From positions 1 to 60,788 of the forward strand of contig JAKAUM010000012.1 in assembly GCA_021827685.1 (NCBI GenBank): a DNA stretch of 60,788 nucleotides, written 5' to 3'. Shown here piece after piece: positions 998 to 17,880 of this stretch. Numbering within the stretch: the first letter of the stretch is position 1; each line of letters opens with the position of its first letter. Origin of the DNA: a bacterium (GTDB lineage: Bacteria > Patescibacteriota > Minisyncoccia > UBA6257 > 2-01-FULL-56-20). A program made the translations under genes and the position numbers. The notes beneath the pieces are model-generated. The model had not been told where the DNA came from. It did no database searches and saw only the letters and a list, made by a program, of their open reading frames with translations.

Positions 998-1063
998 AGT
1001 ATTGATTATACAGGCTCGGACCGTATGGCGTTGCTCAAATAAATTTCAACAGGCCCCCTTTGG

Positions 1064-1807
1064 TCATGCTGTTTCCTTAGCCAGTTTGTCCCACAGCGAG
1101 TCGAACACCAACTTCTGCGTCTCGGCAAGGCCGGTGTCTTCGATAACAACGCTGTGCGGACGACCCTGCGAGAGGGATATAATCGCGACTTTCTTTCCGT
1201 AGATGATAACGTAAGCGGGGGCGCCACGCTTGGCCGTGATCCAGCGCCGCTCATCAAGGCCGCGGATTTCGCCGCCGGCACCGATCGCGATAACTTTCGC
1301 CTTGATTTTCTCCTTGATGCGCCGCTCGGAGAAGCTCGCAAAGTTGTAATAGAGATATTCCCTGATGTTTGCGGCGGAATATACCCGATATTGTTTGTCC
1401 GTTTCTGCCGCCATCGTTTTGAGCACGTCCTCCAATATCAATTTCGTTCCCGTATGCCCCTCGTGGATTTTAATGATCGGCTGCTCGTGCTTGGTCTCAT
1501 AGAACGTCTGTAGCTCAGGAAGGGATTTCGTCAATTCTTTTCGCATGCTCACCAACTTCTGCCGCTCTTCCTTAAAGAGCGTTTTAAGAATAGCGGGATC
1601 TTCCGCGACGAACTGTTGCCTCTGTTTTTTCTGCGAATGGCTTATCAGTCCGCGGTCGCCGAGCACCTTCAACGCCTCATACACGGTTCCTCGGTTGATG
1701 CCCGTGTCCCCCGCTATCTGCCGGATGGATGCGCCGCCGTTCTTCAGCAGATGCGTATAGACCTTTCCCTCGTTCTCCGAAAACCCGAGTTTTTCAAAGA
1801 TTTTCAT
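1064..1807 (-). CDS. TrmB-family HTH transcriptional regulator
   Basis: 247 aa with an ATG start. The N-terminal winged HTH (LGFSENEGKVYTHLLKNGGASIRQIAGDTGINRGTVYEALKVLGDRGLI) is typical of TrmB/sugar-sensing regulators. Confidence 0.75.
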   Translation of the reverse strand: MKIFEKLGFSENEGKVYTHLLKNGGASIRQIAGDTGINRGTVYEALKVLGDRGLISHSQKKQRQQFVAEDPAILKTLFKEERQKLVSMRKELTKSLPELQTFYETKHEQPIIKIHEGHTGTKLILEDVLKTMAAETDKQYRVYSAANIREYLYYNFASFSERRIKEKIKAKVIAIGAGGEIRGLDERRWITAKRGAPAYVIIYGKKVAIISLSQGRPHSVVIEDTGLAETQKLVFDSLWDKLAKETA

Positions 1808-1864
1808 TTTGATTCTGGTTTATTTTTTCGACTATACGGTGAAGCTTACCGCATCCCGACACAC

Positions 1865-1897
1865 TGTCAAATACTTTATTGACAATATATTTGACAA
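1865..1897 (-). promoter_or_regulatory. TTGACA-type repeat cluster upstream of the TrmB-like gene (putative promoter/operator)
   Basis: Inverted repeat tgtcaa(1865-1870)/ttgaca(1879-1884) plus a direct ttgacaa copy (1891-1897). It lies 58-90 nt upstream of the start at 1807. Confidence 0.3.
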
Positions 1898-1910
1898 CGG
1901 CGGTATGCGT

Positions 1911-1938
1911 AAAAAAAGGCCCCGATGCACTCGGGGCC
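1911..1938 (-). terminator. rho-independent terminator after 1963..2523
   Basis: 8-bp GC stem ggccccga(1918-1925)/tcggggcc(1931-1938). On the minus strand it is followed by T7 (plus-strand a7 at 1911-1917). Confidence 0.75.
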
Positions 1939-1962
1939 CGTAGCGAATGAAATCCTCCAATT

Positions 1963-2523
1963 CTACGCCGGAATGGGCCGGGCTTGCGACAGCGACTGGT
2001 CGATGAGCGATATAAAACACCAAGCATCCTCTTTCCGTTCTCGCAGATATTCGGGGTTCAGGAAGAACCGGGAAAACGTATCGCGGAAAACCAGGTAGGC
2101 CGCTCCCTCATATTGGGCTGCCATGCCGGTTGCGTAGCGTTTCGCTTCGTTGCGAATCCGCTCGGAGATACACCACATGAGCTTTGCGACGACGGCGAAA
2201 AACTCTTTCTGGAGATAGTAGTCGGGCGAAGCCATGATCGATTGCCGGTCGAAGCGAACCCAGAGGATTGCTTCCTTGTCGTCGTATTCCGGACAAACCA
2301 CCTGGATGTACTTCCACTCCGATCTCTTCCAATCCGGCTGTTTGTTCTGCTCATCGCAGAAAGATTTGAGTTGCGGGATGCGGTTGAACGGTTTGGCGGC
2401 AATCGTAACTTTGAGCTCGGGAATAATCGCCCGCCAGTGGGATGTAATCATCTCGTAAGACTTGGTGATGAGAGCCGCGACTTCTTGGTCGGCCTCGGGA
2501 TTCGTTACGGTCATAGTTGGCAT
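1963..2523 (-). CDS. hypothetical protein
   Basis: 186 aa with an ATG start, its own terminator and coding-like composition. I recognise no family. Confidence 0.55.
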   Translation of the reverse strand: MPTMTVTNPEADQEVAALITKSYEMITSHWRAIIPELKVTIAAKPFNRIPQLKSFCDEQNKQPDWKRSEWKYIQVVCPEYDDKEAILWVRFDRQSIMASPDYYLQKEFFAVVAKLMWCISERIRNEAKRYATGMAAQYEGAAYLVFRDTFSRFFLNPEYLRERKEDAWCFISLIDQSLSQARPIPA

Positions 2524-2670
2524 CAGTCACTCTCCTTGTTGAATTTTCAATGCCGGTTCGAGGCACCGTATTCACTATGGCCGGGTACGCGCCATCTCTC
2601 AATAACCTGATTGGCAAATATTGTGACAATATCAAGCTTCCTTACGGACGTATGGAAGCTTGATATTTCC

Positions 2671-2710
2671 CAAAAGAAAACCCTCGCAGCTGCCGGAGCA
2701 GATGCGAGGG
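2671..2710 (-). terminator. rho-independent terminator after 2743..3399
   Basis: Stem ccctcgca(2681-2688)/tgcgaggg(2703-2710). On the minus strand it is followed by TTTTCTTTTG. Confidence 0.75.
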
Positions 2711-2742
2711 TCAAGGGGTCAGACAAGAAGAGTGTCTGGTGG

Positions 2743-3399
2743 TCAACGAGAATTGCGAGAGAAGACCTGATCGCCACCGCGCCACGTGTTCGGGTACGTG
2801 ACGGAGCGCGCGCGCACGCGCCAGCCGCAGTCGTCAGCGGCCCAGTACACGCCCACGGCACGGAGCACGCCTTTGGCGTCACGAACATAGAAGATGTTCG
2901 CATAGCCGTTCGTAAGGAGCGCTCCCTTCTCGCCGTTCGGCTGGGCCGACATCAGGGCGAACACTTCGGCGAGCGTCGTTTCCGCTTTCTCTTCGCCGCC
3001 GAGTTCGGCGATGATCGGGCCGTCCACGGACGAGCGCGAGAGCGTGCCGTATTTCAGGGTTGATCCCTCGAACGGCTGCTCTGTCTTGTCCATGAACCAG
3101 CTCGTGAATTCATCCCAAATGTAGGCGATCTTCACGGCCGCGTTCCACTTGGTGTTCACGACAAACTTCTCGCGGGCGATGAAAACGCCCTTGGTTGGGG
3201 CGATCGCCACGGTGCCAATCGGTTTGAGTAATAGTATCCGGGCGATCGCCGCTCCGCCGCGGATGACCGCAAGAACGTCGGCGAAGAAGCCGCCCTTTGT
3301 CATTGCCTTCACCTCGGCATGCGTGGCTCCCGCGCGAGCCAAGGCAAACTCAACTTCCTGAATCTCTCCGGCACTCCCGAAGGTAAACTTGTCGCTCAT
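2743..3399 (-). CDS. hypothetical protein; C-terminal domain resembles the scaffold of the DGR target at 13735..14415
   Basis: 218 aa with an ATG start. The C-terminus NGYANIFYVRDAKGVLRAVGVYWAADDCGWRVRARSVTYPNTW parallels NGYTYFWGTIFRGANSSLYVGYLFRDGDRWRWDCRWLGYDW of the target. Shared pattern: NGY..F....G.L..VG..W...W. Confidence 0.6.
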   Translation of the reverse strand: MSDKFTFGSAGEIQEVEFALARAGATHAEVKAMTKGGFFADVLAVIRGGAAIARILLLKPIGTVAIAPTKGVFIAREKFVVNTKWNAAVKIAYIWDEFTSWFMDKTEQPFEGSTLKYGTLSRSSVDGPIIAELGGEEKAETTLAEVFALMSAQPNGEKGALLTNGYANIFYVRDAKGVLRAVGVYWAADDCGWRVRARSVTYPNTWRGGDQVFSRNSR

Positions 3400-3601
3400 G
3401 ACTGGTTCCTTTTCCGACTCGTTTCCCTTAGGAAACTTGTCTTCTGTAAAGTCATGGAATTGCTCCCATGCTGACCGTATCTTATGCCCTAATTCCTTAA
3501 TTCGTCAAGCGCGCGTAAATATTAATCTCGCGCGGCCTAAGGAAGCATTGGCCACGAACCATTTAACAGACAAAGGCGAAAGTTCCACCTGATTCGTTTC
3601 A

Positions 3602-3638
3602 AGAAAATGCGCCCGTATGGATTGCTCCAAACGGGCGC
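3602..3638 (-). terminator. rho-independent terminator after 3662..4123
   Basis: Stem gcgcccgt(3609-3616)/acgggcgc(3631-3638). On the minus strand it is followed by ATTTTCTTG. Confidence 0.65.
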
Positions 3639-3661
3639 TAGTTCGATGATCAACGCGGTGG

Positions 3662-4123
3662 TCATACCGCGCAGAGCAGCTTGGGCAATTCGACGCGGAG
3701 CTTGGCTATCGCATCCTCGTGCGAATCAAATGTAATAATTTTCACGACGGAGGGATTTCCCCGAAGCAGCCGCGATATCTTGCGAGCTTCGAGCTTTCTT
3801 TGCTCGCAAAGAATTATCACGGGGATGCCACTCCGGTTTGCCATCTCCACCTCGATGCCGCCACCCCAGGAAGGAGCTTCGGCGACAACGACGAGGAGCG
3901 ACGTGCGTTCGCATACCTGCTCACGCTCGGCCGCATCCACCTCGGGAGCGGTGTAGTGCCCGTGCTTTACTGGGTCATAATGTTCGTGCGGCACGAACGC
4001 CCGCACTCCGGTTTCGGCCTCAAACAGATCCGCGATTGCGACATAAAATGCCTTGATCGCGGCCTGTTCTTCTGGCGTCAGTTCGGTCAGTGGGCCGCAT
4101 ACATATGCGGAGTTTCCATTCAT
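3662..4123 (-). CDS. nucleoside 2-deoxyribosyltransferase-like (Rossmann-like) protein
   Basis: The ORF track extends to 4195. I place the start at the internal ATG at 4123 because a GGAGG lies 6 nt upstream. Motifs: N-terminal YVCGPL and C-terminal LLVVVAEAPSWGGGIEVEMANRSGIPVIIL, the PSxGxxxExG pattern of the NDT-like superfamily. Confidence 0.5.
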   Translation of the reverse strand: MNGNSAYVCGPLTELTPEEQAAIKAFYVAIADLFEAETGVRAFVPHEHYDPVKHGHYTAPEVDAAEREQVCERTSLLVVVAEAPSWGGGIEVEMANRSGIPVIILCEQRKLEARKISRLLRGNPSVVKIITFDSHEDAIAKLRVELPKLLCAV

Positions 4124-4445
4124 CCAACACCTCCGATTCATTGGCATTGATGCTGCTTGGCTGAATAGATTTAAACAGAAAGAGCATGTGGTCAAGGAAG
4201 CATAAATCGATCGCCTTTAACAACCACTATTCGATTATCGTGATGAGTCCCAGCAACAGCTATTTTAAAGACGCGATAGGGAGGATTACCGCTTCGCCCG
4301 CCGGAACACTCCGGTCTGTGGCGGACTTTGGGACGCTGTTTTGCGCCCGTATTCCATGCATCGATTTTTATCGCGCATGAATCGCGCAGAAAATCGCGCA
4401 GTGGTTCTGACCGGCTCGTAGGGCACACAGCGGACCTTAGGATAA

Positions 4446-4787
4446 CTATTTCACTTTTCGGGTCAACTGTAAGGTTTTCTTGATAAATTCGTTATGTTCT
4501 TCCGAATATTTCTCCCGGTCTTCTGGATATTTTTTCGCCGGCTCCTTCTTCGGGCTTGAGCATGCCTTCGTGTGCGCTGGATGAGCGTTCAGAGGTTTTC
4601 CATGTTCGCCATGAACGGGTCTTCCCGCTATCGGGAAAATAAAGCTCCCTGCCAGCGATGACTTGCGCCACCCATACACCTTTCGGAGTATGACGGTCCC
4701 CGATGCTCTGACGAGGGGCTTTATACCGGGAACAGAATATTGCGCCATGCCAGCGAGTTGCCTTGCTAGTTTAGGCGTCTTATTCAC
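4446..4787 (-). CDS. hypothetical basic protein
   Basis: 113 aa with a GTG start and a Lys-rich C-terminus. No recognisable domain, so the coding status is uncertain. Confidence 0.35.
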   Translation of the reverse strand: MNKTPKLARQLAGMAQYSVPGIKPLVRASGTVILRKVYGWRKSSLAGSFIFPIAGRPVHGEHGKPLNAHPAHTKACSSPKKEPAKKYPEDREKYSEEHNEFIKKTLQLTRKVK

Positions 4788-4810
4788 TTGTTATATTAAT
4801 TTTATGACGA

Positions 4811-4835
4811 GAAAAGCGCGCCTGTCTAGCGCGCT
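4811..4835 (-). terminator. rho-independent terminator closing the AAA/vWA/paralog gene string
   Basis: Stem agcgcgc(4815-4821)/gcgcgct(4829-4835). On the minus strand it is followed by TTTTCTCGTC. It lies 58 nt after the stop at 4893. Confidence 0.65.
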
Positions 4836-4892
4836 CTGATTTCGAATTCACATATTTTATATAAAAATTTTCGGAACCAAATTCCAAAGTAT

Positions 4893-5774
4893 CTATTCAC
4901 GAGAGAAAAGGACCTGAGGGCGGAACCCCAAGCCGGCGCTCCGCCCGTCGGGATCATCCCAGCGGACGATCGAGAGACCACCGTCCCCCGAGCTGCCACC
5001 ATCGAGGCGCCCCTGGCCCTTCATATAAGAATCTTCGAACCACTCCCATGTGTTTGCTCCGCCCCACTTGGGATAATATACGTTTCCCATGTAGTTCCAT
5101 TCAATCGCACGCGGAAGCCGCAGCGATTCGGGCGGGACATCCAACGCCTCCGCAATGGCTTTCTTCACCTCCGGCTTATTCAACTCGTCCCATGAAATGT
5201 TATAGCGGGAATCCTTAACTTTGAAATCGGTGATGACTTTCTTTTTTCTCAAATCTTCCAGCGTCTCGGCCAGTATATCATCGGCGTATTTTTGCTTGCC
5301 GTCCTGGTATTGCGGCTTCTCGCGGGTATCGACAAGAATCCAAGCGGCGGGAAGCTTGAGAGTTTCCTTTGGAAGATTGCCATTCTTCACTTCATCAAAA
5401 AATTCGATGCCCCATTTTTTATCCGGAGTGTATCGCGTGCCCGGCTTTTTCTTCCACCCGGGCAGATCGCGCCCTTCGTCAAGTTCTTCGTCCGGCAGGT
5501 AATGAAGTTCAAGCCCCATCTCTTTCCATTTCTCGTAGCGCTCGGGCGTAATTTCTTCCGGGAGTTCCGGAACCTCAATGTCGTATCCGAAAAAATTGCG
5601 GAGTGATTCTGCTTCCCGATCGAGGAGCTCGCGGAACTCCATCGTTTCCGCACGCATTCTACCGCGCTCTTTTTCCGCTTCGCCTAAAACCCTCTCCACC
5701 TTCTTTTGAACAGAGGTTTTATACTGGTCGGGGTTATATCCCTCGTATATTTTGTAACCGGGGAAGCGCTCCAT
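4893..5774 (-). CDS. variable-tail paralog P1: cytoplasmic protein with a C-terminal CLec/FGE-like putative DGR variable region
   Basis: 293 aa with an ATG start. It shares the N-terminus MERFPGYKIYE..YNPDQYKTSVQKKVE and the C-terminal frame PRAIEWNY.GN..P.WG....EWFEDS ... LGFRPQV.F.RE with P2 and P3. No signal peptide or TM segment. Confidence 0.85.
   Translation of the reverse strand: MERFPGYKIYEGYNPDQYKTSVQKKVERVLGEAEKERGRMRAETMEFRELLDREAESLRNFFGYDIEVPELPEEITPERYEKWKEMGLELHYLPDEELDEGRDLPGWKKKPGTRYTPDKKWGIEFFDEVKNGNLPKETLKLPAAWILVDTREKPQYQDGKQKYADDILAETLEDLRKKKVITDFKVKDSRYNISWDELNKPEVKKAIAEALDVPPESLRLPRAIEWNYMGNVYYPKWGGANTWEWFEDSYMKGQGRLDGGSSGDGGLSIVRWDDPDGRSAGLGFRPQVLFSRE
4932..5027 (-). 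repeat. hypervariable block (putative DGR VR) of P1
   Basis: Encodes YMKGQGRLDGGSSGDGGLSIVRWDDPDGRSAG. Aligns codon-for-codon with 5888..5983 and 9098..9193; see findings. Confidence 0.7.
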
Positions 5775-5848
5775 ATAAGTTATTTATTTTTGATTATCAT
5801 AAATTTTTCGAACCCGCCAAAGAAACAAAAGACCGATTACCAAAGCAC

Positions 5849-6700
5849 CTATTCACGAGAGAAAACAACCTGAGGGCGGAACCCCAAGTCGCCGAGCCGC
5901 GCGCCGGGATCACCCCAGCCGACGCTCGAGAGACCACCGATCCCCGAGTAGCCAACAGCGAGGCGCCTCTGGCCCTCCCCTAAAGAATCCTCAAACCACT
6001 CCCACGTATCGGTGTCGCCCCATGAAGGGTGGTAGGCGTTGCCGAGATAATTCCACTCGATGGCGCGGGGAAGGCGGAGATATTTTTCTGGAACATCAAG
6101 GGCTTCCGCGATCGCTTTCTTTACTTCCGGTTTGTGCAGTTCATCCCATGAAATTCTGAAACGGGAGCCTTCGACTTCAAAAGCTCCGATGACTTTTTTC
6201 TTTCTCAGTTCTTCAAGCGTTTTAGCAAGTACGTCGTCTTGGTACATTTGCTCGGCGTGTTGATATTTCGGTTTTTCTCTTGTATCCGCGAGGATCCACG
6301 CACCGGGTAAAGTCGCCGCATCGGCATCAACTTTTTTATCTTTAATATTCTCATAAAACAAATCGCGGGGTTTCTTCTTCCAGCCGGGCAGTTCGCGGTC
6401 TTTTTTCATTTCCTCCGCCGGCAAGTAATGGAGTTCGAAACCCATCTCTTTCCATTTCTCGTAGCGCTCCATCGTAATCTCTGCGGGGAGCGGCGGCACT
6501 TCAACGTCGTACCCGAAAAAGTTGCGGAGCGATTCTGCTTCGCGACCCCGAAGCTCGCGGAACTCCATGGTTTCGGGACCCATTCTGCCGCGCTCTTTTT
6601 GCGCTTCGCCTAAAACTCTCTCCACCTTCTTTTGGACGGAAGTCTTATACTGGTCGGGGTTATACTCCTCGTAGATTTTGTAACCGGGGAAGCGCTCCAT
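5849..6700 (-). CDS. variable-tail paralog P2
   Basis: 283 aa with an ATG start placed 2 nt after the vWA stop. Near-identical to P3 outside the tail; for example, a roughly 95-nt stretch around 6037-6133 appears identical to 9247-9343. Confidence 0.85.
   Translation of the reverse strand: MERFPGYKIYEEYNPDQYKTSVQKKVERVLGEAQKERGRMGPETMEFRELRGREAESLRNFFGYDVEVPPLPAEITMERYEKWKEMGFELHYLPAEEMKKDRELPGWKKKPRDLFYENIKDKKVDADAATLPGAWILADTREKPKYQHAEQMYQDDVLAKTLEELRKKKVIGAFEVEGSRFRISWDELHKPEVKKAIAEALDVPEKYLRLPRAIEWNYLGNAYHPSWGDTDTWEWFEDSLGEGQRRLAVGYSGIGGLSSVGWGDPGARLGDLGFRPQVVFSRE
5888..5983 (-). repeat. hypervariable block (putative DGR VR) of P2
   Basis: Encodes LGEGQRRLAVGYSGIGGLSSVGWGDPGARLGD. Confidence 0.7.
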
Positions 6701-6702
6701 GG

Positions 6703-8730
6703 TTATAGATCTCTTGTGTATTGAAGAATAACTTTTTGGACGGCTTGCGGCAATTTATTGATGTCCACGATGACTTCCGCATCCGGTTTATACGTTTCCT
6801 GAACAGCGGCCCCGGATTCCGTCATGCCCAAGCCTAAAATAATCACGCCCTTCTCGCGCAGCGCTTTGAGGTTCTTCTGGACGCGTTCGGCGTTTTCGCT
6901 GTCGCCGTCCGAGAGTACTACGATCACTTTGCGCCGTATCTTTTCCCTAAGCTGCCGCTCATCTTCCGGTGTCAGGGATTTTAACGCTTCTTCGAGCGAG
7001 AGATAATCCGGCGTTCCGCCACCCGCCTTGTGCATTTTCTTCCAAATCGCGATGCGGTCTTTTTCCGAAAGATCCGGCGAGAGTTTTTTGAGTTCCACAT
7101 CGCCGAAATCGCCGAACGCTCTCGTTTCGGTTCTCACGCCTAAACCCACAGGCATGCCGCTCTCGTATTCTGCTTCCTCGATTTCTTTCTGAAAGTCCGC
7201 GAGCGATTCCAAGAAAAGAAGTTTGCTTTTTCTATCCATTTCGAGCTTCCCGCCCTCGTTCATGGAGCCGGAAAGGTCATTGATCAGAGTCATATCAAGC
7301 GCGCCATATCCCTCTTCTTCCCGCTGCTTGCGCTCCACATCTCGAAATGCTCTCGGCTCACCGCCGCTTTTGGACTCGATATACGCTTCCGCGACCGTTC
7401 CACCCTCTATTTCCTCTCCTTCTCGCTGGAGCTGCGGGCGAACTTTCCAGCGCCGCTGTAATCTCTTCGTCACTACTTGCTTGAACACTTCGCGAAGTTC
7501 GGCAATGAGCGGGGCAATTTCTTTATATTCGTTTCGATATCCAATCACGTCTTCGGGGCTTACGTCGTGCTCCCTTGCCCATTGCTCAAGGATGCTCTGA
7601 TCGAGAGTGGGCACTCCGCCGCGCTCTTTCACAATCGTCTCGATCGCTTTCATGATTTTTTCTTCGTCTTTGGCCGACAAGGGCTCGGGGTGCGTCGCCT
7701 CATATGTTTTATATTGCTCCTTGAATCGCTTCTCGGCCTCGCGCCGGGCGCCGCCATCGCCGCGCTTCTCTTTTTTCGTGTCTCCTCCGCCTTCTTCTCC
7801 CTTTCCATTGCCGCCCTCGGCCTCTTTTTTCTTTTTAAACTTCTCCCACCACTTTTTGTCTTTTTTTTCGCCGCCCTGCTCGCCCTGCCCACCCTGCCCT
7901 CCTTCCTGTTCGCGACTTTCGTTCGACTGGCCTTGACCCTGATCCCCTTTGCCTTTTTGTTTCTGCGTTTCGCGCTCCATGTCTTTGCGGTAAAGTTCCA
8001 TATAAACCGGCTCGACAACCTGGCGCATCAACTTGAACCGGTCGCGCGGCTCAATTGTGGGCGTCGTTACAAGATCTAAAATATCTGTTCTGTCGTCGCC
8101 GAAATTGCGAAGCTTATCGAGGGCTTCCTGTGCTTCGGGACCCACCGTAACTTGTTCATCCGGAACCATCATCTGGCGGATAAAGCCGTACACGAACTGA
8201 ACGTGGGCAGACAATTCCTGTTCTTGGCCAGTTTGCGGATCCTTGAGGCGCCGGTAATCGGTCGCCGGAAACATTTTCTCTTTATATAAAGTGCGGCGCG
8301 TTTCCTCCAGAAATGGAAGTTCAGCGACAATGCGCCGATTCCCAAGCACGTCTTCAAAGATATTGTGGAGAATATGGAGCTGCGGTTTTTGCTGGCTATA
8401 TCGTTTCGCTTCCTTAAGTACAAATTCCGGATCTCTCAAAAGTTCCCCGTAGTGAGCCATAAGCTCGTGCGTCGTCGCAAAGAGCGTTTCCTTAAGATCG
8501 TAACCGCGCTCAATGAAAAAATTGGGATCGTAAACAAGTCGCCGGTTCTCGAAGTCGAACGCCCAACCGTTGCTCCCCCTTTCGAGCGTAATGTCCCCGC
8601 GCATCCCGTATGCGCCGAGGATCTCGCCTTCCTTGTCGAAAAACGCTTCAACTTCGGACGGCTGCGACTCCTTCTTTTCAATGGGATTCTCGTCTCCCTC
8701 GGGCGGTTTTTCAGGAGAGAATTTAGTCAA
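6703..8730 (-). CDS. vWA-domain protein with an N-terminal HExxH (metallopeptidase-like) region and a central K/E/G-rich low-complexity linker
   Basis: 675 aa. HELMAH motif near residue 90. C-terminal vWA domain with the MIDAS motif DLSGSM. The track start at 8730 is a TTG overlapping the stop of the RT remnant, so the true start is uncertain. Confidence 0.8.
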   Translation of the reverse strand: MTKFSPEKPPEGDENPIEKKESQPSEVEAFFDKEGEILGAYGMRGDITLERGSNGWAFDFENRRLVYDPNFFIERGYDLKETLFATTHELMAHYGELLRDPEFVLKEAKRYSQQKPQLHILHNIFEDVLGNRRIVAELPFLEETRRTLYKEKMFPATDYRRLKDPQTGQEQELSAHVQFVYGFIRQMMVPDEQVTVGPEAQEALDKLRNFGDDRTDILDLVTTPTIEPRDRFKLMRQVVEPVYMELYRKDMERETQKQKGKGDQGQGQSNESREQEGGQGGQGEQGGEKKDKKWWEKFKKKKEAEGGNGKGEEGGGDTKKEKRGDGGARREAEKRFKEQYKTYEATHPEPLSAKDEEKIMKAIETIVKERGGVPTLDQSILEQWAREHDVSPEDVIGYRNEYKEIAPLIAELREVFKQVVTKRLQRRWKVRPQLQREGEEIEGGTVAEAYIESKSGGEPRAFRDVERKQREEEGYGALDMTLINDLSGSMNEGGKLEMDRKSKLLFLESLADFQKEIEEAEYESGMPVGLGVRTETRAFGDFGDVELKKLSPDLSEKDRIAIWKKMHKAGGGTPDYLSLEEALKSLTPEDERQLREKIRRKVIVVLSDGDSENAERVQKNLKALREKGVIILGLGMTESGAAVQETYKPDAEVIVDINKLPQAVQKVILQYTRDL

Positions 8731-9053
8731 GTTATTGCGTTTATTATACCGCTTATAGGCCGAAAAATCAAATGATTTTCTTTACCATTTCCCATCGCAC
8801 GGTGCGCGATTTTAAGATCGGCGTTGAGAAATTCGCCGACTTTCCCTATATAGCTCGACAGGAGTTCTCGATCTCTGTCTAAAATTACGAAGTCGTCGCA
8901 GTAGCGCATGTAATACTTCGCGCGCAGAGTCATTTTTATGAATTGATCGGGTTCGTTCAGATAGATATTCGCGAAGAGCTGGCTCGTGAGGTTGCCGAGC
9001 GGCAGTCCCTGTATGTCAACATCCCTTTTGTGAGACAAGAGCCAAAATCCCAA
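8727..9053 (-). pseudogene. internal remnant of a DGR-type reverse transcriptase (motifs 4-5 only)
   Basis: Translation QGLPLGNLTSQLFANIYLNEPDQFIKMTLRAKYYMRYCDDFVILDRDRELL. It carries the LGxxxSQ motif-4 signature of DGR RTs and a YxDD catalytic box (YCDD). N-terminal fingers motifs 1-3 and the thumb are absent. The apparent start is a TTG 5 nt after the P3 stop. Confidence 0.75.
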
Positions 9054-9058
9054 AGCAC

Positions 9059-9910
9059 CTATTCACGAGGGAAAACAACCTGAGGGCGGAACCCCAAGGC
9101 GTCGTTCCGTCCGACGGGATTACCCCAGTAGACGTTCGAGAGACCACCGCTCCCCGAGTGGCCACCATCAAGGCGCCTCCGGCCATTCATGTAAGAATCC
9201 TCGAACCATTCCAATGAATTCGTCTCGCCCCATGAAGGGTGGTGGGCGTTGCCGAGATAATTCCACTCGATGGCGCGGGGAAGGCGGAGATATTTTTCTG
9301 GAACATCAAGGGCTTCCGCGATCGCTTTCTTTACTTCCGGTTCGTGCAGTTCATCCCATGCGATCCCGAAGCGGGAGCATTTGACTTCAAAAGCTCCGAT
9401 GGCTTTTTTCTTTCTCAATTCTTCAAGCGTTTTAGCAAGTACGTCCTCTTTATACGCCTGCTTGCCGTCTTCGTAATGCGGTTTGTCCCTGCCGTCTACA
9501 AGTATCCATGCCGCAGGCAGCGTTGCTGCATCAGCGGCGACTTCTTTTGCTTCCAATATTTCATAAAACCAGTCCCGCGGCTTCTTCTTCCAGCCGGGCA
9601 GTTCGCGGTCTTTTTTCATTTCTTCCGCCGGCAGGTAGTGGAGTTCGAGCCCCATTTCTTTCCATTTCTCGTAGCGTTCTGCCGTAATTTCTTCCGGGAG
9701 CTCCGGAATCTCAATGTCGTATCCGAAAAAGTTGCGGAGTGATTCTGCTTCCCGATCTATCAGCTCCCGGAATTCCAATAATTCCGGATTGATGAGCCCT
9801 TTTTCTTTCTGCGCTTCCCCAAGCGCCTTTTCTACCTTCTTTTGAACAGAGGTCTTGTATTGGTCGGGGTTGTACTCTTCGTATATTTTGTAACCGGGGA
9901 AGCGCTCCAT
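9059..9910 (-). CDS. variable-tail paralog P3
   Basis: 283 aa with an ATG start 12 nt after the AAA ATPase stop. Same family as P1 and P2. Confidence 0.85.
   Translation of the reverse strand: MERFPGYKIYEEYNPDQYKTSVQKKVEKALGEAQKEKGLINPELLEFRELIDREAESLRNFFGYDIEIPELPEEITAERYEKWKEMGLELHYLPAEEMKKDRELPGWKKKPRDWFYEILEAKEVAADAATLPAAWILVDGRDKPHYEDGKQAYKEDVLAKTLEELRKKKAIGAFEVKCSRFGIAWDELHEPEVKKAIAEALDVPEKYLRLPRAIEWNYLGNAHHPSWGETNSLEWFEDSYMNGRRRLDGGHSGSGGLSNVYWGNPVGRNDALGFRPQVVFPRE
9098..9193 (-). repeat. hypervariable block (putative DGR VR) of P3
   Basis: Encodes YMNGRRRLDGGHSGSGGLSNVYWGNPVGRNDA. This copy is the richest in AAC/AAT codons. Confidence 0.7.
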
Positions 9911-9922
9911 AACATAATGGGA

Positions 9923-11599
9923 CTATTCTTTGCCCTGCCAGGCGCGCAGCGTCTTCGCCGCAAGTCCGGGTACTTTGAAGTCTTCGGGCTTAGTGTCCTT
10001 GAAGAATTTATTGGCCATAAAGACGCGGATCATATTTTCCCTGTCTTTGCTCGCCCGGCCGCTGATTTCGGCTTTATGGAAAAACTCGCGAAGCACGACG
10101 TCCCCGAGCTGCTCTTTAAATCCGCCGGCTTTCCACGCTTTCATGATTTCGATCTGGTCCTTCAGGGTAACCACAAGCTCCTTGAATGCCAGGCGGTCGC
10201 TTTTCGCCAAACTTTCTTCCGCGCCTTCGCGCACGGAAAGCGTGAAGTCTTCCTGTATCTTGCGGCAGGCGGCGGCAAATCGCTTCAGTTCATCCACCTT
10301 CCCGGCCGCCCCTGTTTCGCTCCACTGGATATTGCCGTGCCGGTCGGCGAGAACGGCGGTCAAAATTCGGAGCGTTTCCGGAGCGATATATTGCCCTTCT
10401 TTATTTTTCTTCCCGAGATCCAAATAGTGAATTTCGCGGGCTCCCGCGCCTCCGATGAAGCGGCGGAGCGTCGCTACATCGAGTTCATAGCGCTGCTTGT
10501 ACCGCTCCGATTTCAAGTTAGCCGTTGCCATAATCGGTGCGCGGATCGGGATTTCCTCGCCGGTTACGGGATGCTTCCAAACATCGCCGACCCGCTTTTG
10601 CAAAAGGTCGTGCAAAATTCCCGCGAACTCGTGGGGCATAAGATTCACTTCATCTAAAATCACGGGGCGCCCTTCTTTTTGCGCTTTCACGAATTCGGAA
10701 TAGTCAAAAACCGTCTCACCGCCTTTGAGTCCTCGGGTGCCCAAGATCTGCGATTCTTTGATCTGTTCCTGTATGGAAATGAGCGCCGGCGCTTTTCTCA
10801 AATATCTCTCCGAAATATATTTCGCAAGCTGCGATTTCCCCGAGCCGGTTTCGCCCTGGAAAAGAACCGGGGCGCCCTGAAGCAGATCCGGCAGTATGGC
10901 GCGGATGAGTTCCGTGCGCGATTCCGTTTCGGCAAAACTGTATTGCTCCAAATCGCGCTGCATCTTGCGGATGCCGCGCCGCTCGAGCATATCGATTGTG
11001 TCCGGATCAAGCTCGAAGTTTTTTATCGTTTCCTGAAGTTCGCCCTTGCGGGTTGCGAGGTCGGCCATTTTCTTCCGCTCGATGGGCCCCGGCGCCCGCC
11101 CCACTTTCTCGTAAACCATCTGAAGCTTTTTCTCTGCCGAGGTTATCGCGTCAAGTTCTTTTTCGGCATGTTCATACTGCAAAGATTTCGTAAGCGTTTG
11201 TTTCTTTTTCTCGAATTGCTCCTTATAAGTTCGTAAAACTTCCGGATTGCTCGCCAACTCTTTGATGCGGGCATCGTATTCCGTAAGCGTCGTTTCTTGA
11301 AATTCCGCGAGTTCCGGATCGAGTGAAAGCGCCTCGAGATGCGCCGCGACTTCGTTTTCTCCTTTGGCCTTCAAATCTGCGAGCTCCGTTTTGCTTTTCA
11401 CACCCCATGCTTCGTTCACGTGCTTCGCGACTTCGGCGCGGGAAGCCGAAAGCTCCGCGAGCTCATTTACGCGAGATTCCAATTCCTCGCGTGAAAGTGG
11501 TTTCTCTTTTTTAGATGGCTTTTCCACGCTCTCCCGCTCAAGAATCACTTCGGGGGTGGTTTTTACTTCGGGAATATGCGGCAACTTTTCTGGAGACAT
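9923..11599 (-). CDS. MoxR/AAA_5-like P-loop ATPase with a long coiled-coil N-terminal region
   Basis: Walker A is GETGSGKS and Walker B is VILDEVN, followed by an ATANL sensor-like segment. The track ORF starts at a TTG (11662); the first ATG is at 11599 (MSPEKLPH...). Confidence 0.8.
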   Translation of the reverse strand: MSPEKLPHIPEVKTTPEVILERESVEKPSKKEKPLSREELESRVNELAELSASRAEVAKHVNEAWGVKSKTELADLKAKGENEVAAHLEALSLDPELAEFQETTLTEYDARIKELASNPEVLRTYKEQFEKKKQTLTKSLQYEHAEKELDAITSAEKKLQMVYEKVGRAPGPIERKKMADLATRKGELQETIKNFELDPDTIDMLERRGIRKMQRDLEQYSFAETESRTELIRAILPDLLQGAPVLFQGETGSGKSQLAKYISERYLRKAPALISIQEQIKESQILGTRGLKGGETVFDYSEFVKAQKEGRPVILDEVNLMPHEFAGILHDLLQKRVGDVWKHPVTGEEIPIRAPIMATANLKSERYKQRYELDVATLRRFIGGAGAREIHYLDLGKKNKEGQYIAPETLRILTAVLADRHGNIQWSETGAAGKVDELKRFAAACRKIQEDFTLSVREGAEESLAKSDRLAFKELVVTLKDQIEIMKAWKAGGFKEQLGDVVLREFFHKAEISGRASKDRENMIRVFMANKFFKDTKPEDFKVPGLAAKTLRAWQGKE

Positions 11600-11753
11600 A
11601 TTATTGAAATTATAATAGCAAAACAAGCATTTCTCAAAATTCCGTCGAGCTATGTATTCCAATAATACTACAGATGCTCTAATAAGTCAACCTTTTCGCA
11701 CTGGTTCCCCACCAGGGCGGCCTTATCCGACTTATAGCTCCCTCGCGCCCTTC

Positions 11754-12047
11754 TTATCGCATCCCTTTGAATACGATGCCAGTTGTTCTTTGCAAAAGTT
11801 CCAATGTCGCCCGCACGGATGGGTTGCTGGTGTGCCGTAATTGGACTCTATCGCCGTAGGTTTTCCCGAGCGGCGTCAGAAATTCGTCGCCCCATGAAGG
11901 TGAAAAGGTCAAAACGTCCTCGAAGTCGATCTCGAGATTCTCATCCTCTTTGATGTCGCGCAATGTCGGCTGGAATGCCGCGAACGATTCGCGTCCGGCT
12001 TGGCGGGAAATGAGGGTCGTCCCGAATTTTTTGAGTTCGATGGTCAT
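11754..12047 (-). CDS. STAS-like small protein (DUF4325-like)
   Basis: 97 aa with an ATG start. The pattern ISRQAGRE...LEIDFEDVLTFSPSWGDEFL matches the DUF4325/STAS-like architecture. The gene starts 5 nt after the GHKL gene stop. Confidence 0.55.
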   Translation of the reverse strand: MTIELKKFGTTLISRQAGRESFAAFQPTLRDIKEDENLEIDFEDVLTFSPSWGDEFLTPLGKTYGDRVQLRHTSNPSVRATLELLQRTTGIVFKGMR

Positions 12048-12052
12048 GGATT

Positions 12053-12775
12053 TTAATATGATATGAGGACAAGGCAGCCGCGTAGGTTCTCTTTGCTTTT
12101 CGCCACAATGAAATCGGTATCCCTGCCTTTCATGGTAAGTGCTGCGTCGCCGCTTTGGAAGGAGATGTTAATGTTATTTTCAGAAACGACCTCCTTCACG
12201 TACTTCAGTCCGTTGCCCCGCCCCTCGGGAGCGCGGCCGGAGATGACTTCCGTAAACGCGACCTTCAGGGCATCTTCGTAGTTATTCAGCGCCGGTCTCA
12301 CCCGCTTCAATGTTTCGAGGACGCCGATACCTCTATCGGCCAACACAATCTGCTTTTTCACAAGATCGTACGCGAAGAATATCCCCGGCGTATCCGGCCA
12401 CAATCCGAGATTATGGTCGAATGAGTTGTTCCCTATTTCCCCCGCGACTGACACGAGCAGCGAGAAGAGATCAGGTACCGTGCCGCCGCGAATCATGTCG
12501 TCCTGCATCCTGATGAGCCGCGCCTGGAAAACGGCGCTCGTCTGACAATAGAAACCCTGCGGGAATTCCGCATTGCCCGCGATCCAATCGTGGGCAAGCC
12601 TGAAAAGGTTCTGCGAGAAAATCTCGACATCCTTTCTCCGGTAATAACGGTCTCCTCCTTCCCGTTTCCGGATGGCAGGAAAACGTCCGCTCTCATCCCA
12701 ACGGCGCAACGTCATTATGGAGACGCCCATCAGCTCGGCGGCTTCTCCTATTGGAACCAGATCTTTGTCGTCCAT
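12053..12775 (-). CDS. MerR-type HTH fused to a GHKL (HATPase_c-like) ATPase/kinase domain
   Basis: MerR HTH: IGEAAELMGVSIMTLRRWDESGRFPAIRKREGGDRYYRRKDV. GHKL boxes: N-box EIGNNSFDHN, G1 DRGIG, G2 GRGNGLKY. The track start at 12826 is a TTG; the first ATG is at 12775. Confidence 0.7.
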   Translation of the reverse strand: MDDKDLVPIGEAAELMGVSIMTLRRWDESGRFPAIRKREGGDRYYRRKDVEIFSQNLFRLAHDWIAGNAEFPQGFYCQTSAVFQARLIRMQDDMIRGGTVPDLFSLLVSVAGEIGNNSFDHNLGLWPDTPGIFFAYDLVKKQIVLADRGIGVLETLKRVRPALNNYEDALKVAFTEVISGRAPEGRGNGLKYVKEVVSENNINISFQSGDAALTMKGRDTDFIVAKSKENLRGCLVLISY

Positions 12776-12816
12776 AGCTTTGTTAGCTTCAAGAGCTATT
12801 TTATCATACTTTTTAT

Positions 12817-12884
12817 ATCTATACAAACTTCCCTATATCTATACATCTACCATAAATCTCTATATTTTCCTCTTAATCTATACA
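12817..12884 (-). promoter_or_regulatory. periodic direct repeats upstream of the MerR-GHKL gene (putative operator array)
   Basis: Plus-strand atctataca at 12817, 12837 and 12876, plus a degenerate atctctata at 12856. This gives a period of about 20 nt. The minus-strand motif is TGTATAGAT. Confidence 0.4.
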
Positions 12885-13271
12885 TTGCTTTCCTCCAAAA
12901 TCAGGGCGCCACCCCCCCCTACCCCTACCTACCCTAAATATCCCCATTTTCTCTGATTTCCACTGCCTTTCCGGCGTCTGGGGGCGGACATGTCCGGTTT
13001 TGCGCGAGCCGATCGCCCACTGGCATGCATACGCGGTACACGCTCGGCGTGAAAATCGACAGCCTGCTCGTCGAAACCATCGCACAGATATAAGAAGCGA
13101 ATCGTGCGAGTAAGGGCACGAAGCTGCCGCATCTTGAGCGCGCCGCTCATTATCTCGACCTCGCGAAACTCTTCCTCGAGATGCTCTAGGAGATCAAAGC
13201 GCTGGATAGCGGGAAATATATCTCCCTTTCCGAAAAACTCTTTGAAGCGGGCAGGTAGGCCAGCGGTTGGG

Positions 13272-13385
13272 CGCGGCCGGCTCGTTGTCGTTCCAGTCGT
13301 TGTCGAGCCAGTTATAGTTCCAGTTCCACCTGTTGCCGTTCCAGTACGGGTACTCGACATACAGGTTACCGTTCGCGTTGCGGAA
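13272..13385 (-). repeat. DGR template repeat (TR), 114 nt
   Basis: The minus-strand sequence would read FRNANGNLYVEYPYWNGNRWNWNYNWLDNDWNDNEPAA and contains 11 AAC codons. It is 85/114 identical to 13750..13863. Similarity ends at the ttccgc (5') and ccggccgcg (3') boundaries. Confidence 0.8.
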
Positions 13386-13639
13386 TCGTGCGCCGTGCCA
13401 TCCGCGCCACCATCCGTTGATTACTCTCGGGATTGAATCGTGTTCGGGATGCCCCCAGCACCGCGCACCAAGTATCTTCGTTTTTATTTCGGTTGAAAGA
13501 ACGGCGCTGGCAGAAAGCGTACCCGCTGCCATTCCGCGTTCAGTGATACCGGAATGCGGCCGCCGAAACCGCAGCCTCGGACTTGTTTTGAGCCTTATTC
13601 CGAAATCGTTTTTCACGTCTTATTTTTGTAGATAATAGA

Positions 13640-13680
13640 TAAAAGAAGGCCCGTGCAGAACCGAAGTTCGCGCACGGGCC
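13640..13680 (-). terminator. hairpin/rho-independent terminator downstream of the VR
   Basis: Stem ggcccgtgc(13648-13656)/gcacgggcc(13672-13680). On the minus strand it is followed by TTCTTTTAT. It lies about 70 nt 3' of the VR end. Confidence 0.7.
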
Positions 13681-13734
13681 GAAGAGCAAAGGGGCAGAGG
13701 ATCAGAAAGGTCCAGCTGCCCCATATCCAAAGGA

Positions 13735-14415
13735 CTAACTTGCGAGCGACGCGGCCGGGCTCTGAACGCGCCAGTCGTAGCCGAGCCAGCGGCAGTCCCA
13801 GCGCCACCTGTCGCCGTCCCGGAACAGGTACCCGACATACAGGCTGCTGTTCGCGCCGCGGAAGATGGTTCCCCAGAAATAGGTGTAACCATTCTTCCAC
13901 TCATTAGGAATGAGCTTCGGGTTGGCGAGCAGGGCATCCATGATGCAGGCGTTCAGCACCTGCACGTCCCTCAGCTCCTTGCAGAGCTTGTGGCCCTGGA
14001 TGTAGTTGCCATCCCGCTGCTTTTTTGAGAGGTAACGGACGACTTCCTTGCCGTTCGCATAGAGCTTGCCGTCGTCACGCTTTACGAGGGTGATCGCGCC
14101 CATCGGGCGATGCTCAGTTCCGTCGCCCGTCAGGTAGAGGCCGGATGGGATTTTGGGATTTGCGTCGCAGTCCACGATGATCGACATCGGAAGCGGGGCG
14201 GGCTGCGGTTTCCCGATAACGGGAACCACTGCGGCTGGCGTCTCGAACTTACGTCCTTCGACCACCTGCTGCAGTTCATCCATCACCCAGTCGTATTCGA
14301 GCGTGCCTTCGTTGATCCGGCGCTTCAATTCGTCGGTGCGACGAGTCATCTTTCCGAGCTGCTCATCGTCCATCTTGGTTCCGTCGAGGACAGCGCTTGC
14401 CGTCGTATTCGTCAT
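13735..14415 (-). CDS. DGR target protein (cytoplasmic, no signal peptide) with the VR at its C-terminus
   Basis: 226 aa with an ATG start preceded by AAGGAG. The C-terminal 38 codons form the VR. Confidence 0.85.
   Translation of the reverse strand: MTNTTASAVLDGTKMDDEQLGKMTRRTDELKRRINEGTLEYDWVMDELQQVVEGRKFETPAAVVPVIGKPQPAPLPMSIIVDCDANPKIPSGLYLTGDGTEHRPMGAITLVKRDDGKLYANGKEVVRYLSKKQRDGNYIQGHKLCKELRDVQVLNACIMDALLANPKLIPNEWKNGYTYFWGTIFRGANSSLYVGYLFRDGDRWRWDCRWLGYDWRVQSPAASLAS
13750..13863 (-). repeat. DGR variable repeat (VR), 114 nt
   Basis: Encodes FRGANSSLYVGYLFRDGDRWRWDCRWLGYDWRVQSPAA. There are 29 mismatches to the TR, and 20 of them fall at TR adenines. Confidence 0.8.
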
Positions 14416-14545
14416 GACAGTTTCTCCTTTTTCTGCCGCATAGTTGCAGCTTTGAACGTACCATCACATATGCGCTCAAAGCTGCAACGAAGCGGAAATC
14501 CCTTGGAATATATGGCTTTTCAAAGAGCATTGAGTTACGATTTAT

Positions 14546-14573
14546 ATTATATCATAACTATAATCCTTGTCGA
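14546..14573 (-). promoter_or_regulatory. sigma70-like promoter of the DGR target gene
   Basis: Minus strand: TCGACA, a 16-nt spacer, then TATAAT (-10 at 14546-14551, -35 at 14568-14573). Confidence 0.5.
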
Positions 14574-14665
14574 GACAGCCGTTTCGAGCCTTTTTAGTAT
14601 AGAATTTGCACTCTTGCCACCGCTATCTTCCAGGTTCGTAGGCGACCTCCGCGCAAAACGCTCGT

Positions 14666-15211: not shown

Positions 15212-15212
15212 G

Positions 15213-15916: not shown

Positions 15917-15934
15917 GGATCTTAAAAAATACCG

Positions 15935-16765: not shown

Positions 16766-16784
16766 GTGTGTGTCGTGTGTTGCG

Positions 16785-17408: not shown

Positions 17409-17417
17409 GTGTTTTTT

Positions 17418-17873: not shown

Positions 17874-17880
17874 AAGCGCG

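Follow-up and report, generated by a model that had tools for sequence, protein, structure and literature searches.

Introduction

In a DGR, a reverse transcriptase (RT) and Avd copy the TR RNA into cDNA, with misincorporation opposite adenines. The RTs of these elements carry [LIV]GxxxSQ as motif 4, whereas group II intron and retron RTs carry QGxxxSP. The prototype is the DGR of Bordetella phage BPP-1, which comprises bRT, Avd, TR, and Mtd. The DGRs of CPR/Patescibacteria are known as the 'CPR set' (Wu et al., 2018, PMC5758913) and as DGR clade 2 (Roux et al., 2021, PMC8144416). In most of them, avd and TR are arranged distinctly in order or orientation, a layout termed 'B3' (Wu et al., 2018, PMC5758913), and their targets have no recognisable Pfam domain (PMC5758913, PMC8144416). 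Inactivated or partial DGRs are common in genome surveys (Wu et al., 2018, PMC5758913). In the DGR-associated vWA-MoxR (VMAP-ternary) conflict systems of cyanobacteria and gammaproteobacteria, fusion of the FGS domain to the vWA protein is the usual arrangement (Kaur et al., 2020, PMC7159879).

The locus described here is a case of an inactivated DGR. It lies in a 60,788-nt stretch of DNA, hereafter called the window. The original prediction, made from the letters of the window alone, had placed an internal remnant of a DGR-type RT beside the gene P3. It had also proposed that a deletion left the local cassette dead. In this study, the remnant was compared with intact relatives and its neighbourhood was analysed.

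Results

Features of the locus

All features considered are on the minus strand of the window.

4893-5774, minus strand: P1, DGR target of the Pb type; variable region about 4911-5022, alignable to the relatives' TRs
5849-6700, minus strand: P2, DGR target; variable region about 5870-5976
6703-8730, minus strand: vWA-domain protein gene, 675 aa; Pfam VWA (24.2 bits, cut-off 23.8) and VWA_CoxE
8727-9053, minus strand: remnant ORF, 108 aa; start codon TTG at 9053
8743-8771, minus strand: vWA promoter-like site (TTGATT, 17 nt, TATAAT) that overlaps the former RT stop codon
8768-8807, minus strand: RT fragment B, comprising the RT's final 13-14 codons and the ancestral stop codon TGA (8770-8768), in a frame other than that of fragment A
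8808-9011, minus strand: RT fragment A, 68 in-frame aa corresponding to residues 197-264 of the L006 RT, which has 339 aa (tblastn, DNA alignment)
9009-9031, minus strand: 5' deletion junction zone, 23 nt assignable neither to the P flank nor to the RT
9032-9058, minus strand: shared P-family 3' flank past the P3 stop, defined by comparing the flanks of 9 P genes; the remnant ORF begins within it
9059-9910, minus strand: P3, DGR target of the Pa/Pc type; variable region about 9080-9188, alignable to the TRs of L006, L007, and L001
9923-11662, minus strand: AAA_5 (MoxR-like) ATPase, first gene of a conserved module; Pfam AAA_5 E = 1e-16

The translation of the remnant ORF agrees with that quoted in the original prediction. 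The frame is still open over 108 codons and ends in a stop that overlaps the start of vWA.

The remnant derives from a DGR-type RT

Motifs 4 (GLPLGNLTSQ) and 5 (YCDD) lie in RT fragment A, which extends through ...FLNADLKI. The top PDB-sequence match of the fragment was 8ub7_A, a 328-aa reverse transcriptase (residues 178-238, E = 2.3e-9; next best 5e-7), in which the two motifs read GIPIGSLTSQ and YMDD. From its sequence and length, we take 8ub7 to be the bRT of Bordetella phage BPP-1; its database name is only 'Reverse transcriptase', and the code 8ub7 does not appear in the text of the bRT-Avd structure preprint. The remnant ORF also matched Pfam RVT_1 over profile positions 117-178 of 205 (E = 3.4e-4). 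In tblastn, it was 88% identical to the intact RT of the relative L006 (E = 2e-35). This full-length orthologue was again closest to 8ub7_A (E = 2.1e-45; next best 3.5e-21; group II intron RTs about 1e-21). The RT orthologues in L006, L007, L008, and L001 adjoin Avd and an adenine-biased TR/VR pair, and the RT homologues found were all from Patescibacteria. The full-length RTs were reached through the relatives' loci; a direct search with the 108-aa ORF returned proteins of at most 189 aa. The best match to 8ub7_A and the orthology with the L006 RT bear out the DGR-type assignment that the original prediction had drawn from motif 4 and the YxDD box.

Intact cassettes in relatives

In L006, L007, and L008, the region from the P genes through TR, Avd, and RT to the vWA gene is intact. 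The order is AAA_5 ATPase, P gene(s), TR, Avd (opposite strand), RT, vWA, and P. The L006 Avd exceeded the NCBIfam DivGenRetAVD cut-off (91.9 bits vs 80). In the relatives' own TR/VR pairs, mismatches fell at 12-18 TR adenines and at just 1 non-adenine position each. By these sequence features, the relatives carry real DGRs.

Set against these cassettes, the loss of motifs 1-3, Avd, and TR at the remnant, which the original prediction had noticed, can be read off exactly. No second RT was present in the whole 60.8-kb window. A tblastn search with the Avd proteins of L006 and L001 found no Avd in it, and neither a pattern search allowing 3 mismatches nor blastn at word size 7 found a TR or fourth copy of the variable-region core. 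The window is the part of the genome that was examined, which leaves room for an RT and a TR elsewhere. With TR, Avd, and most of the RT absent, the local cassette is dead, as had been proposed.

Among the full-length RTs, the closest to the remnant were those of L006 (60/66 residues identical) and P0121 (59/66); because of these values, neither qualifies as an intact allele of the same species. Only short or more distant loci (L010-L018) came out of a P-family scan of metagenomes; their nucleotide identity did not exceed about 83%, and none spans the RT in a close relative. A further locus, L019 (P0248), was uninformative, being a rearranged or chimeric long-read contig with a C-terminal piece of vWA and one P gene. 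Over the retained 66 codons, 23 synonymous and 5 non-synonymous changes were assigned to the window branch, and 18 and 5 to the intact L006 branch. Since the two patterns resemble each other, the inactivation is recent. Decay followed an independent route in the sister lineage L001, where an IS30-like element has inserted into the RT and an IS200-like element into a target gene.

Two deletions in the RT region

The tblastn and DNA alignments to the L006 RT define the truncation points, with residues 197-264 retained in frame and residues 326-339 out of frame. The latter were matched by tblastn at 8812-8771 in a different frame. A complete RT domain (motifs 1-7 and thumb) is lacking, and about 75% of the RT has been lost from the window. 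The remnant is thus internal to the RT, as predicted, although its in-frame RT part is 68 aa (9011-8808) and not the ~85 aa first estimated.

As predicted, the ORF begins 5 nt past the P3 stop. The shared P flank, which had been thought to end there, runs about 27 nt further and supplies the first 7-8 codons of the ORF; blastn homology to the relatives' P flanks stops at 9032-9036. For the 23-nt filler that follows, the best local matches to the relatives' deleted region scored no higher than shuffled sequences. An origin in the TR-distal hairpin region of L007/L001, where the best matches lay, was dropped because the scores were within the range of the shuffled controls. The alignments indicate that the first deletion took TR, Avd, and RT residues 1-196 with motifs 1-3.

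A second, internal deletion appears in the DNA alignment of the window and its relatives as a gap of 188 columns. Its junction is at about 8808/8807, with a microhomology of 3-4 nt (TCG/CTCG). By the same alignments, it took RT residues 265-325 with motifs 6-7 and the thumb, in accordance with the predicted break after ...FLNADLKI. The original prediction of a deletion that removed TR and the 5' part of the RT therefore holds, and it had missed both this second deletion and the retained out-of-frame RT terminus. The 188-nt deletion shifts the frame, and the final 27 codons of the ORF are therefore a wrong-frame reading of the native RT 3' end and of the spacer between RT and vWA. The out-of-frame peptide of fragment B is also found in an alternative frame of L006. 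The remnant further carries a unique L-to-P change in the conserved NELDQF segment. It has no plausible activity.

P genes and their variable regions

The three P genes remain intact in the window and are 73-87% identical in their 300-nt repeat segments. Like described CPR targets, they have no recognisable Pfam domain. The AlphaFold model of P3 (pLDDT 90) gave Foldseek matches that were weak (E 0.005 and above, TM about 0.4) but uniform, all of them having the FGE/C-type-lectin fold (TvpA, FGE, CarF, PvdO, and Mtd).

With the relatives' TRs as a proxy reference for the window's own missing TR, the three P tails differed at 15 of the 22 columns that are adenine in these TRs and at 7 of the 86 others (Fisher p = 2e-8). 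This pattern identifies the tails as true variable regions. The tails also share lineage-specific non-adenine bases, such as CGTC where all relatives' TRs have CGTG; therefore, they were last written from this lineage's own, now missing, TR. Further window-specific bases stand in GATCCCG and CTCGGGG. A window-type TR was reconstructed as GGCGCCTCGATGGTGGCAACTCGGGGAACGGTGGTCTCTCGAACGTCAACTGGGATAATCCCGACGAACGGAACGACGACTTGGGGTTCCGCCCTCAGA, with adenines put at variable sites, some of which are uncertain.

In its middle region, P1 shares 85%, 80%, and 76% identity with the Pb genes of L006, L007, and L001, respectively, and 64% with P2 and P3. The Pb-type gene of the relatives lies directly upstream of TR, whereas P1 lies downstream of P2 and not beside P3. 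At least one further rearrangement must therefore have occurred. Several recombination paths are conceivable for the position of P1.

The vWA gene and the ATPase gene

The original prediction had suggested that the rearrangement reshaped the 5' end of the vWA gene. This was contradicted by the comparison with relatives, in which the start position, the N-terminus, and the TTGATT-17-TATAAT site are all conserved. The vWA protein is 91.6% identical in amino acid sequence to its L006 orthologue, with a collinear N-terminus, and its start codon is TTG in the window and GTG in relatives at the same position. The promoter-like site matches the consensus at 10 of 12 positions, and nearly every column is invariant in the window, L006, L007, and L001. 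The overlap between the remnant stop and the vWA start is a by-product of the frameshift. The AAA_5 ATPase is syntenic in L001 and L007 at 85-90% amino acid identity. The MoxR-type ATPase and the vWA protein are encoded together in the window, and the pair is kept in relatives.

Independent assemblies

The junction between the remnant and vWA was reproduced in three other assemblies (L003, L004, and L005), two of which also span the P3-remnant junction. Across the junctions, the sequence is the same, at 100% or 99.95% identity and without gaps, in a MAG contig from NCBI, an assembly from ENA, and two Logan assemblies of separate runs. The window and L003 differ by 5 SNPs over 10.6 kb, one of them within a variable region. 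This SNP coincides exactly with a TR-adenine site in the P1 variable region, at position 4969 of the window; the chance expectation for such a placement is about 3%. The P3 variable region is identical in L004.

Discussion

Proposed history of the element

The ORF at 8727-9053 is, with high confidence, a pseudogene fragment of a CPR/Patescibacteria-type DGR RT, in an element that was killed by two deletions, with the P variable regions fixed. In the ancestor, TR, Avd (on the opposite strand), and RT would have lain between the P genes and the vWA gene, within the AAA_5-ATPase/vWA module, and the P proteins would have had their C-terminal variable regions overwritten by the cDNA. A first deletion may then have run from about 30 nt beyond the P3 stop to about RT codon 197, with loss of TR, Avd, and motifs 1-3. 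A second one, with microhomology at its junction, would have removed 188 nt within the RT (codons 265-325) and caused the frameshift. The last 14 RT codons and the spacer probably survived because they carry the putative vWA promoter. As the tails are almost identical across assemblies, all three are probably frozen in their last diversified state.

Alternative explanations

An origin of the fragment from a group II intron, retron, or defence-type RT would undercut this history. The highest NCBIfam match, although below threshold, was indeed group_II_RT_mat (fragment 36.6 bits, L006 RT 150, cut-off 300). This model tops the list because NCBIfam has no DGR RT model. Motif 4 reads LGNLTSQ and not QGxxxSP, 8ub7_A is the best solved-structure match of the fragment and, by 24 orders of magnitude, of the full-length orthologue, and the orthologues sit in cassettes with Avd and adenine-biased TR/VR pairs. 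Rfam gave no intron RNA or msr/msd in 4500-12500. Such an origin is practically inconceivable and, judged by orthology, is rejected. The junctions might also be assembly artefacts that conceal an intact RT and TR. The locus is repeat-rich, with three P paralogues, and the short-read contigs L004 and L005 both end inside P2, L005 beginning at 8997 near the 5' junction. However, the same junction sequence occurs in the NCBI MAG, the ENA assembly, and the two Logan assemblies. Because independent assemblies reproduce the junctions, mis-assembly is very unlikely, to the point of being hardly credible. Scarcely more plausible is domestication of the 108-codon ORF as a small protein, in which a palm fragment translationally coupled to vWA has gained a new function. 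The open frame, the stop overlapping the vWA TTG start, and the few non-synonymous changes in the retained 66 codons would fit it. The intact L006 branch has an equally low non-synonymous rate, and hence the rate reflects past selection on the whole RT. Moreover, the N-terminal codons come from the non-coding P flank, the C-terminal 27 codons are out-of-frame read-through, and the L-to-P change affects a conserved segment. The short form was seen in no other lineage, and the ORF is absent from the gene calls of the NCBI assembly.

The original prediction had left two options for the tails, freezing or servicing in trans. Diversification of the three variable regions by a complete DGR elsewhere in the genome, with the local RT dead, is unlikely but deserves more weight than the foregoing alternatives. 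It would agree with the scarcity of non-adenine differences between the three variable regions (about 3 clear differences in 86 columns), with the SNP on a TR-adenine site between assemblies, and with a report that certain DGR-associated vWA systems have their TRs 'elsewhere in the genome' (Kaur et al., 2020, PMC7159879). On the other hand, a homing event would alter many adenine sites together, whereas the variable regions are essentially identical between assemblies of different samples. TR, RT, and Avd are all absent from the window, and the P-family search gave a single P/DGR locus per relative genome matched. A collection of 5.8 billion proteins contained no full-length RT with more than 91% identity to the remnant, and a search of JGI metagenomes with an exact window-type TR/VR pattern (GGTGGTCTCTCGANCGTCNNCTGGGNTNATCCCG) gave 0 matches. 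Freezing of the tails is thus the preferred reading. The loss of the mutator may itself have been selected rather than neutral. In a 'diversify, then lock' scheme, lineages of the clade would repeatedly switch the DGR off after useful specificities of the P proteins had arisen, with all targets and the vWA promoter retained intact. We consider this speculative and rather improbable. If it were true, the remnant would mark a recent lock, reached by two independent routes, namely deletions here and IS30-like/IS200-like insertions in L001.

Significance and comparison with known systems

The locus provides a clean, base-resolved case of DGR death, in which the endpoints of two deletions spare the neighbour's promoter and the 3' flanks of the targets. 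It also shows that variable-looking paralogue tails beside an RT motif are not equivalent to ongoing hypermutation. A conserved Patescibacteria DGR is placed in an AAA_5-ATPase/vWA module with several small C-type-lectin-fold targets, in parallel with cyanobacterial vWA-MoxR systems. This module context is the more interesting lead, although it is not specific to the remnant.

The element resembles the CPR/Patescibacteria DGRs in that all its RT homologues are from Patescibacteria and that the relatives' cassette likewise has Avd, TR, RT, and multiple targets. In the relatives, Avd lies on the opposite strand between TR and RT, which may be the 'B3' layout. Unlike those DGRs, the element in the window is non-functional, with TR, Avd, and about 75% of the RT gone; in contrast to the inactivated DGRs of surveys, its decay can be traced base by base from intact relatives. 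With the BPP-1 DGR, it shares the IGxLTSQLFAN motif and the YxDD box, a C-terminal variable region on an FGE/C-type-lectin fold, with Mtd among the fold matches of P3, and, in the relatives, adenine-specific TR/VR mismatches. It differs from BPP-1 in being chromosomal in a Patescibacteria-type genome, with three paralogous targets and, in the relatives, an inverted Avd. As in the vWA-MoxR (VMAP-ternary) systems (Kaur et al., 2020, PMC7159879), a MoxR-type ATPase and a vWA protein are combined with DGR-diversified FGS/C-type-lectin domains, whereas here the diversified FGS-like domain is carried by separate small P proteins and the host belongs to the Patescibacteria.

Gene order and identity of the remnant ORF

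The three paralogous target genes P1, P2, and P3 are interleaved with module genes as follows.

12053-12826, minus strand, MerR-type regulator
9923-11662, minus strand, AAA_5/MoxR-like ATPase
9059-9910, minus strand, P3
8727-9053, minus strand, remnant ORF of 108 codons, between P3 and the vWA gene
6703-8730, minus strand, vWA-domain protein of 675 aa, between the remnant ORF and P2
5849-6700, minus strand, P2
4893-5774, minus strand, P1

The translation of the remnant ORF agrees with the peptide quoted in the original prediction, and the observation of a remnant is itself confirmed. The peptide carries LGNLTSQ (motif 4) and YCDD (motif 5). Its match to Pfam RVT_1 (E = 3.4e-4) is under the gathering score and covers only profile positions 117-178 of 205. 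NCBIfam has no model for the reverse transcriptase (RT) of diversity-generating retroelements (DGRs), and the group II match was far under the cut-off. The top solved-structure match was 8ub7_A, a 328-aa RT (E = 2.3e-9); a full-length orthologue matched it at 2.1e-45, versus approximately 1e-21 for group II intron and retron-type RTs. The structure entry is named only "Reverse transcriptase"; from its length and its aligned IGSLTSQ/YMDD motifs, we take it to be the Bordetella phage bRT. The assignment to the DGR class is settled by the orthologous RTs, which sit in bona fide DGR cassettes (see below), and the predicted DGR-type RT fragment is thereby confirmed.

The P proteins are 70-78% identical to one another, and the last ~110 nt of their genes consist of constant blocks broken by single or paired variable bases. 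The family is small, with 43 clusters at E ≤ 1e-5, all from Patescibacteria and all named "hypothetical protein", with no Pfam domain. All Foldseek matches of the P3 AlphaFold model (pLDDT 90) have the FGE/C-type-lectin fold; TvpA and Mtd, both DGR variable proteins, are among them, but the statistics are weak (E of at least 0.005, TM ~0.4).

G+C content is ~51% in the part with the P/AAA_5/vWA module (positions 1-14,000) and ~62% in the remainder, with the shift at ~14,000-14,700. Short dispersed repeats of ~114 nt (75% identical) lie inside the low-GC segment and at its border (13272-13385 and 13750-13863); another, at 4287-4400, was compared with positions 3951-4064 of L003, another assembly of this locus. 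The 23S rRNA gene (53585-57177) owes its length of 3.6 kb to a group I intron (Rfam Intron_gpI, 54535-55129), which contains a 148-codon ORF (54559-55005).

Intact cassettes in related loci

The nearest protein match to the remnant ORF (P0002) leads to locus L001, where AAA_5, P genes, RT, and vWA are ordered as in the window and are accompanied by a gene for the accessory protein Avd and a template repeat (TR), a 110-nt repeat of the P tails. Scanning species-representative genomes for the P family yielded four Patescibacteria loci, which were mapped by tblastn. With target genes divided into subtypes Pa, Pb, and Pc, the order in L007 is AAA_5, Pa, Pb, TR, Avd (opposite strand), unbroken RT, vWA, and Pc. 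In L006 (Candidatus Paceibacteria), whose vWA protein is 91.6% identical to that of the window, it is Pb, TR, Avd (minus strand), RT (339-aa ORF), vWA, and Pc. L008 (Kaiserbacteria) has the same gene order as these two, and L009 shares it up to Avd, at the contig end. The related loci are real DGRs, since the L006 Avd scores above the NCBIfam DivGenRetAVD cut-off and mismatches between each relative's own TR and variable region (VR) fall at 12-18 TR adenines and just one non-adenine position.

In L001, the RT is broken near its 5' end (~codon 50) by an IS30-like element (HTH_38/rve; L001 8545-9640), Pb is broken by a Y1_Tnp (IS200-like) element (L001 6536-6964), and a third P gene has a frameshift. 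The same cassette is thus inactivated there independently of the window lineage.

In the fetched DNA of three more distant P arrays (L023 254-6661, L024 4863-8879, and L022 7068-8051), no RT, Avd, or TR was found. P genes directly flank a vWA gene in L023, and L024 and L022 are similar; the C-terminal tails of these arrays diverge at all positions, not just at would-be adenine sites. P arrays thus exist without a nearby DGR, and the DGR is an accessory of the module rather than a fixed part of it. In another related locus (L021 7342-9689), nucleotidyltransferase/HEPN (HepT-like) toxin-antitoxin pairs alternate with P target genes upstream of TR and Avd.

LOOT RNA (Rfam RF03000) was matched at window 4657-4777 (minus strand), L006 5473-5591 (plus strand), and L007 7007-7127 and 17151-17270 (both minus strand), with 75-90 bits against a gathering score of 46.4. 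In both the window and L006, it lies just 3' of the final P gene; in L007, one copy flanks the AAA_5...P module on each side. A literature search for LOOT RNA yielded no informative paper.

Two deletions in the RT region

The remnant was numbered against the 339-aa L006 RT. RT residues 197-264 correspond to window 9011-8808 (88% identity), and residues 326-339 to 8812-8771 in a different frame, followed directly by the ancestral TGA stop at 8770-8768. The P-family flank persists to ~9032, and the 23 nt at 9031-9009 had no match assigning them to this flank or to the RT. The first missing segment therefore begins ~30 nt beyond the P3 stop and extends to RT codon ~197; its L006 counterpart is ~1.26 kb and holds the TR, Avd, and RT motifs 1-3. 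The original prediction of a dead cassette that had lost TR, Avd, and the 5' part of the RT is borne out by the intact relatives and by the window itself, where no further RT-like or Avd-like sequence was found across 60.8 kb and a fourth copy of the variable-region core was sought and is absent.

That account was incomplete in missing a second, internal deletion of 188 nt, which removed codons 265-325 (motifs 6-7 and the thumb). Its junction lies at ~8808/8807, with TCG/CTCG microhomology at the flanks. As 188 is not divisible by three, the ORF continues out of frame through the RT terminus and the RT-vWA spacer to a TGA overlapping the vWA start; an alternative reading frame of L006 yields the same out-of-frame peptide.

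The rearrangement had also been proposed to reshape the vWA 5' end, which is not the case. The start position is common to the window, L006, L007, and L001 (TTG in the window, GTG in the relatives), and the N-terminal peptide MTKFSPEKPPEG... is collinear with theirs. A promoter-like TTGATT-17-TATAAT in the spacer (8771-8743) is kept, with nearly all columns invariant across the four loci. Selection on this putative vWA promoter probably accounts for the survival of the final ~40 nt of RT sequence.

P1 belongs to the Pb subtype: it has a 10-aa insertion, and its nucleotide identity to Pb genes is 76-85% (window 4893-5774 versus L006 24-704, L007 9992-10873, and L001 7021-7659). In the relatives, the TR comes directly after Pb; P1 instead follows P2 and precedes the flank found after Pc in L006. 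This displacement indicates that the window locus was somehow rearranged beyond the two deletions.

Timing of inactivation and state of the variable regions

The TRs of L006, L007, and L001 stood in for the missing TR, and a column was scored as adenine when at least two of them had adenine. Among the P1-P3 tails, 15/22 adenine columns were variable versus 7/86 other columns (Fisher p = 2e-8); several of these seven could be adenines in the lost TR, leaving ~3 clear non-adenine changes. The tails share fixed bases found in no relative's TR (e.g., CGTC versus CGTG); they were therefore last rewritten from a TR of their own lineage, after the split from the L006 lineage. Across the 66 retained RT codons, 23 synonymous and 5 non-synonymous changes fall on the window branch and 18 and 5 on the intact L006 branch. 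The RT therefore remained under purifying selection through most of this period, and its inactivation is recent. A window-specific L to P change in the conserved NELDQF segment is of the type expected once constraint is lost.

The remnant protein and the junctions recur in GCA_027318325.1 (an NCBI MAG contig), L003 (an ENA assembly), and the Logan assemblies L004 and L005. Over 10.6 kb without gaps, 5 positions distinguish L003 from the window, and the P3 variable region of L004 is identical to that of the window. The only L003 difference in a variable region, at window 4969 (T in the window, G in L003, gene strand), falls on a TR-adenine site of P1 (TCGANCG), for which the chance expectation is ~3%. 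A DGR homing event would alter many adenine sites together; hence, we read the tails as essentially static and position 4969 as one ordinary or selected point mutation. The comparison of assemblies counts against mis-assembly. It also leans against servicing of the P1-P3 tails in trans by a second DGR at another genomic site, as the variable regions are near-identical between assemblies; such servicing is improbable, and the tails are quite probably frozen.

Agreement between L003 and the window stops at 14,689; beyond it, L003 has unrelated sequence (heavy-metal ATPase) where the window has the ribosomal-protein operon. A chimeric join, island mobility, or strain rearrangement could account for this. 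NCBI record DAHVPJ010000001.1 and the window are identical over window 1-18730; window 60788 would map ~2.9 kb past the end of that record (342,864), which may reflect another record version or wrap-around.

Comparison with known DGRs

In a previous survey, over half of the candidate DGRs were discarded because of stops, truncations, or poor agreement between TR and VR, the authors warned that the level of inactivated DGRs is high, and CPR DGRs mostly had their own avd/TR order and orientation (Wu et al., 2018, PMC5758913). A Patescibacteria-restricted DGR clade has targets without recognizable domains (Roux et al., 2021, PMC8144416). DGR-diversified FGS domains occur on vWA-MoxR systems in cyanobacteria and gammaproteobacteria (Kaur et al., 2020, PMC7159879), an association paralleled by the AAA_5/vWA context of the window. 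By comparison with these surveys, the window locus is a decayed representative of an already known type of DGR in a parallel context.
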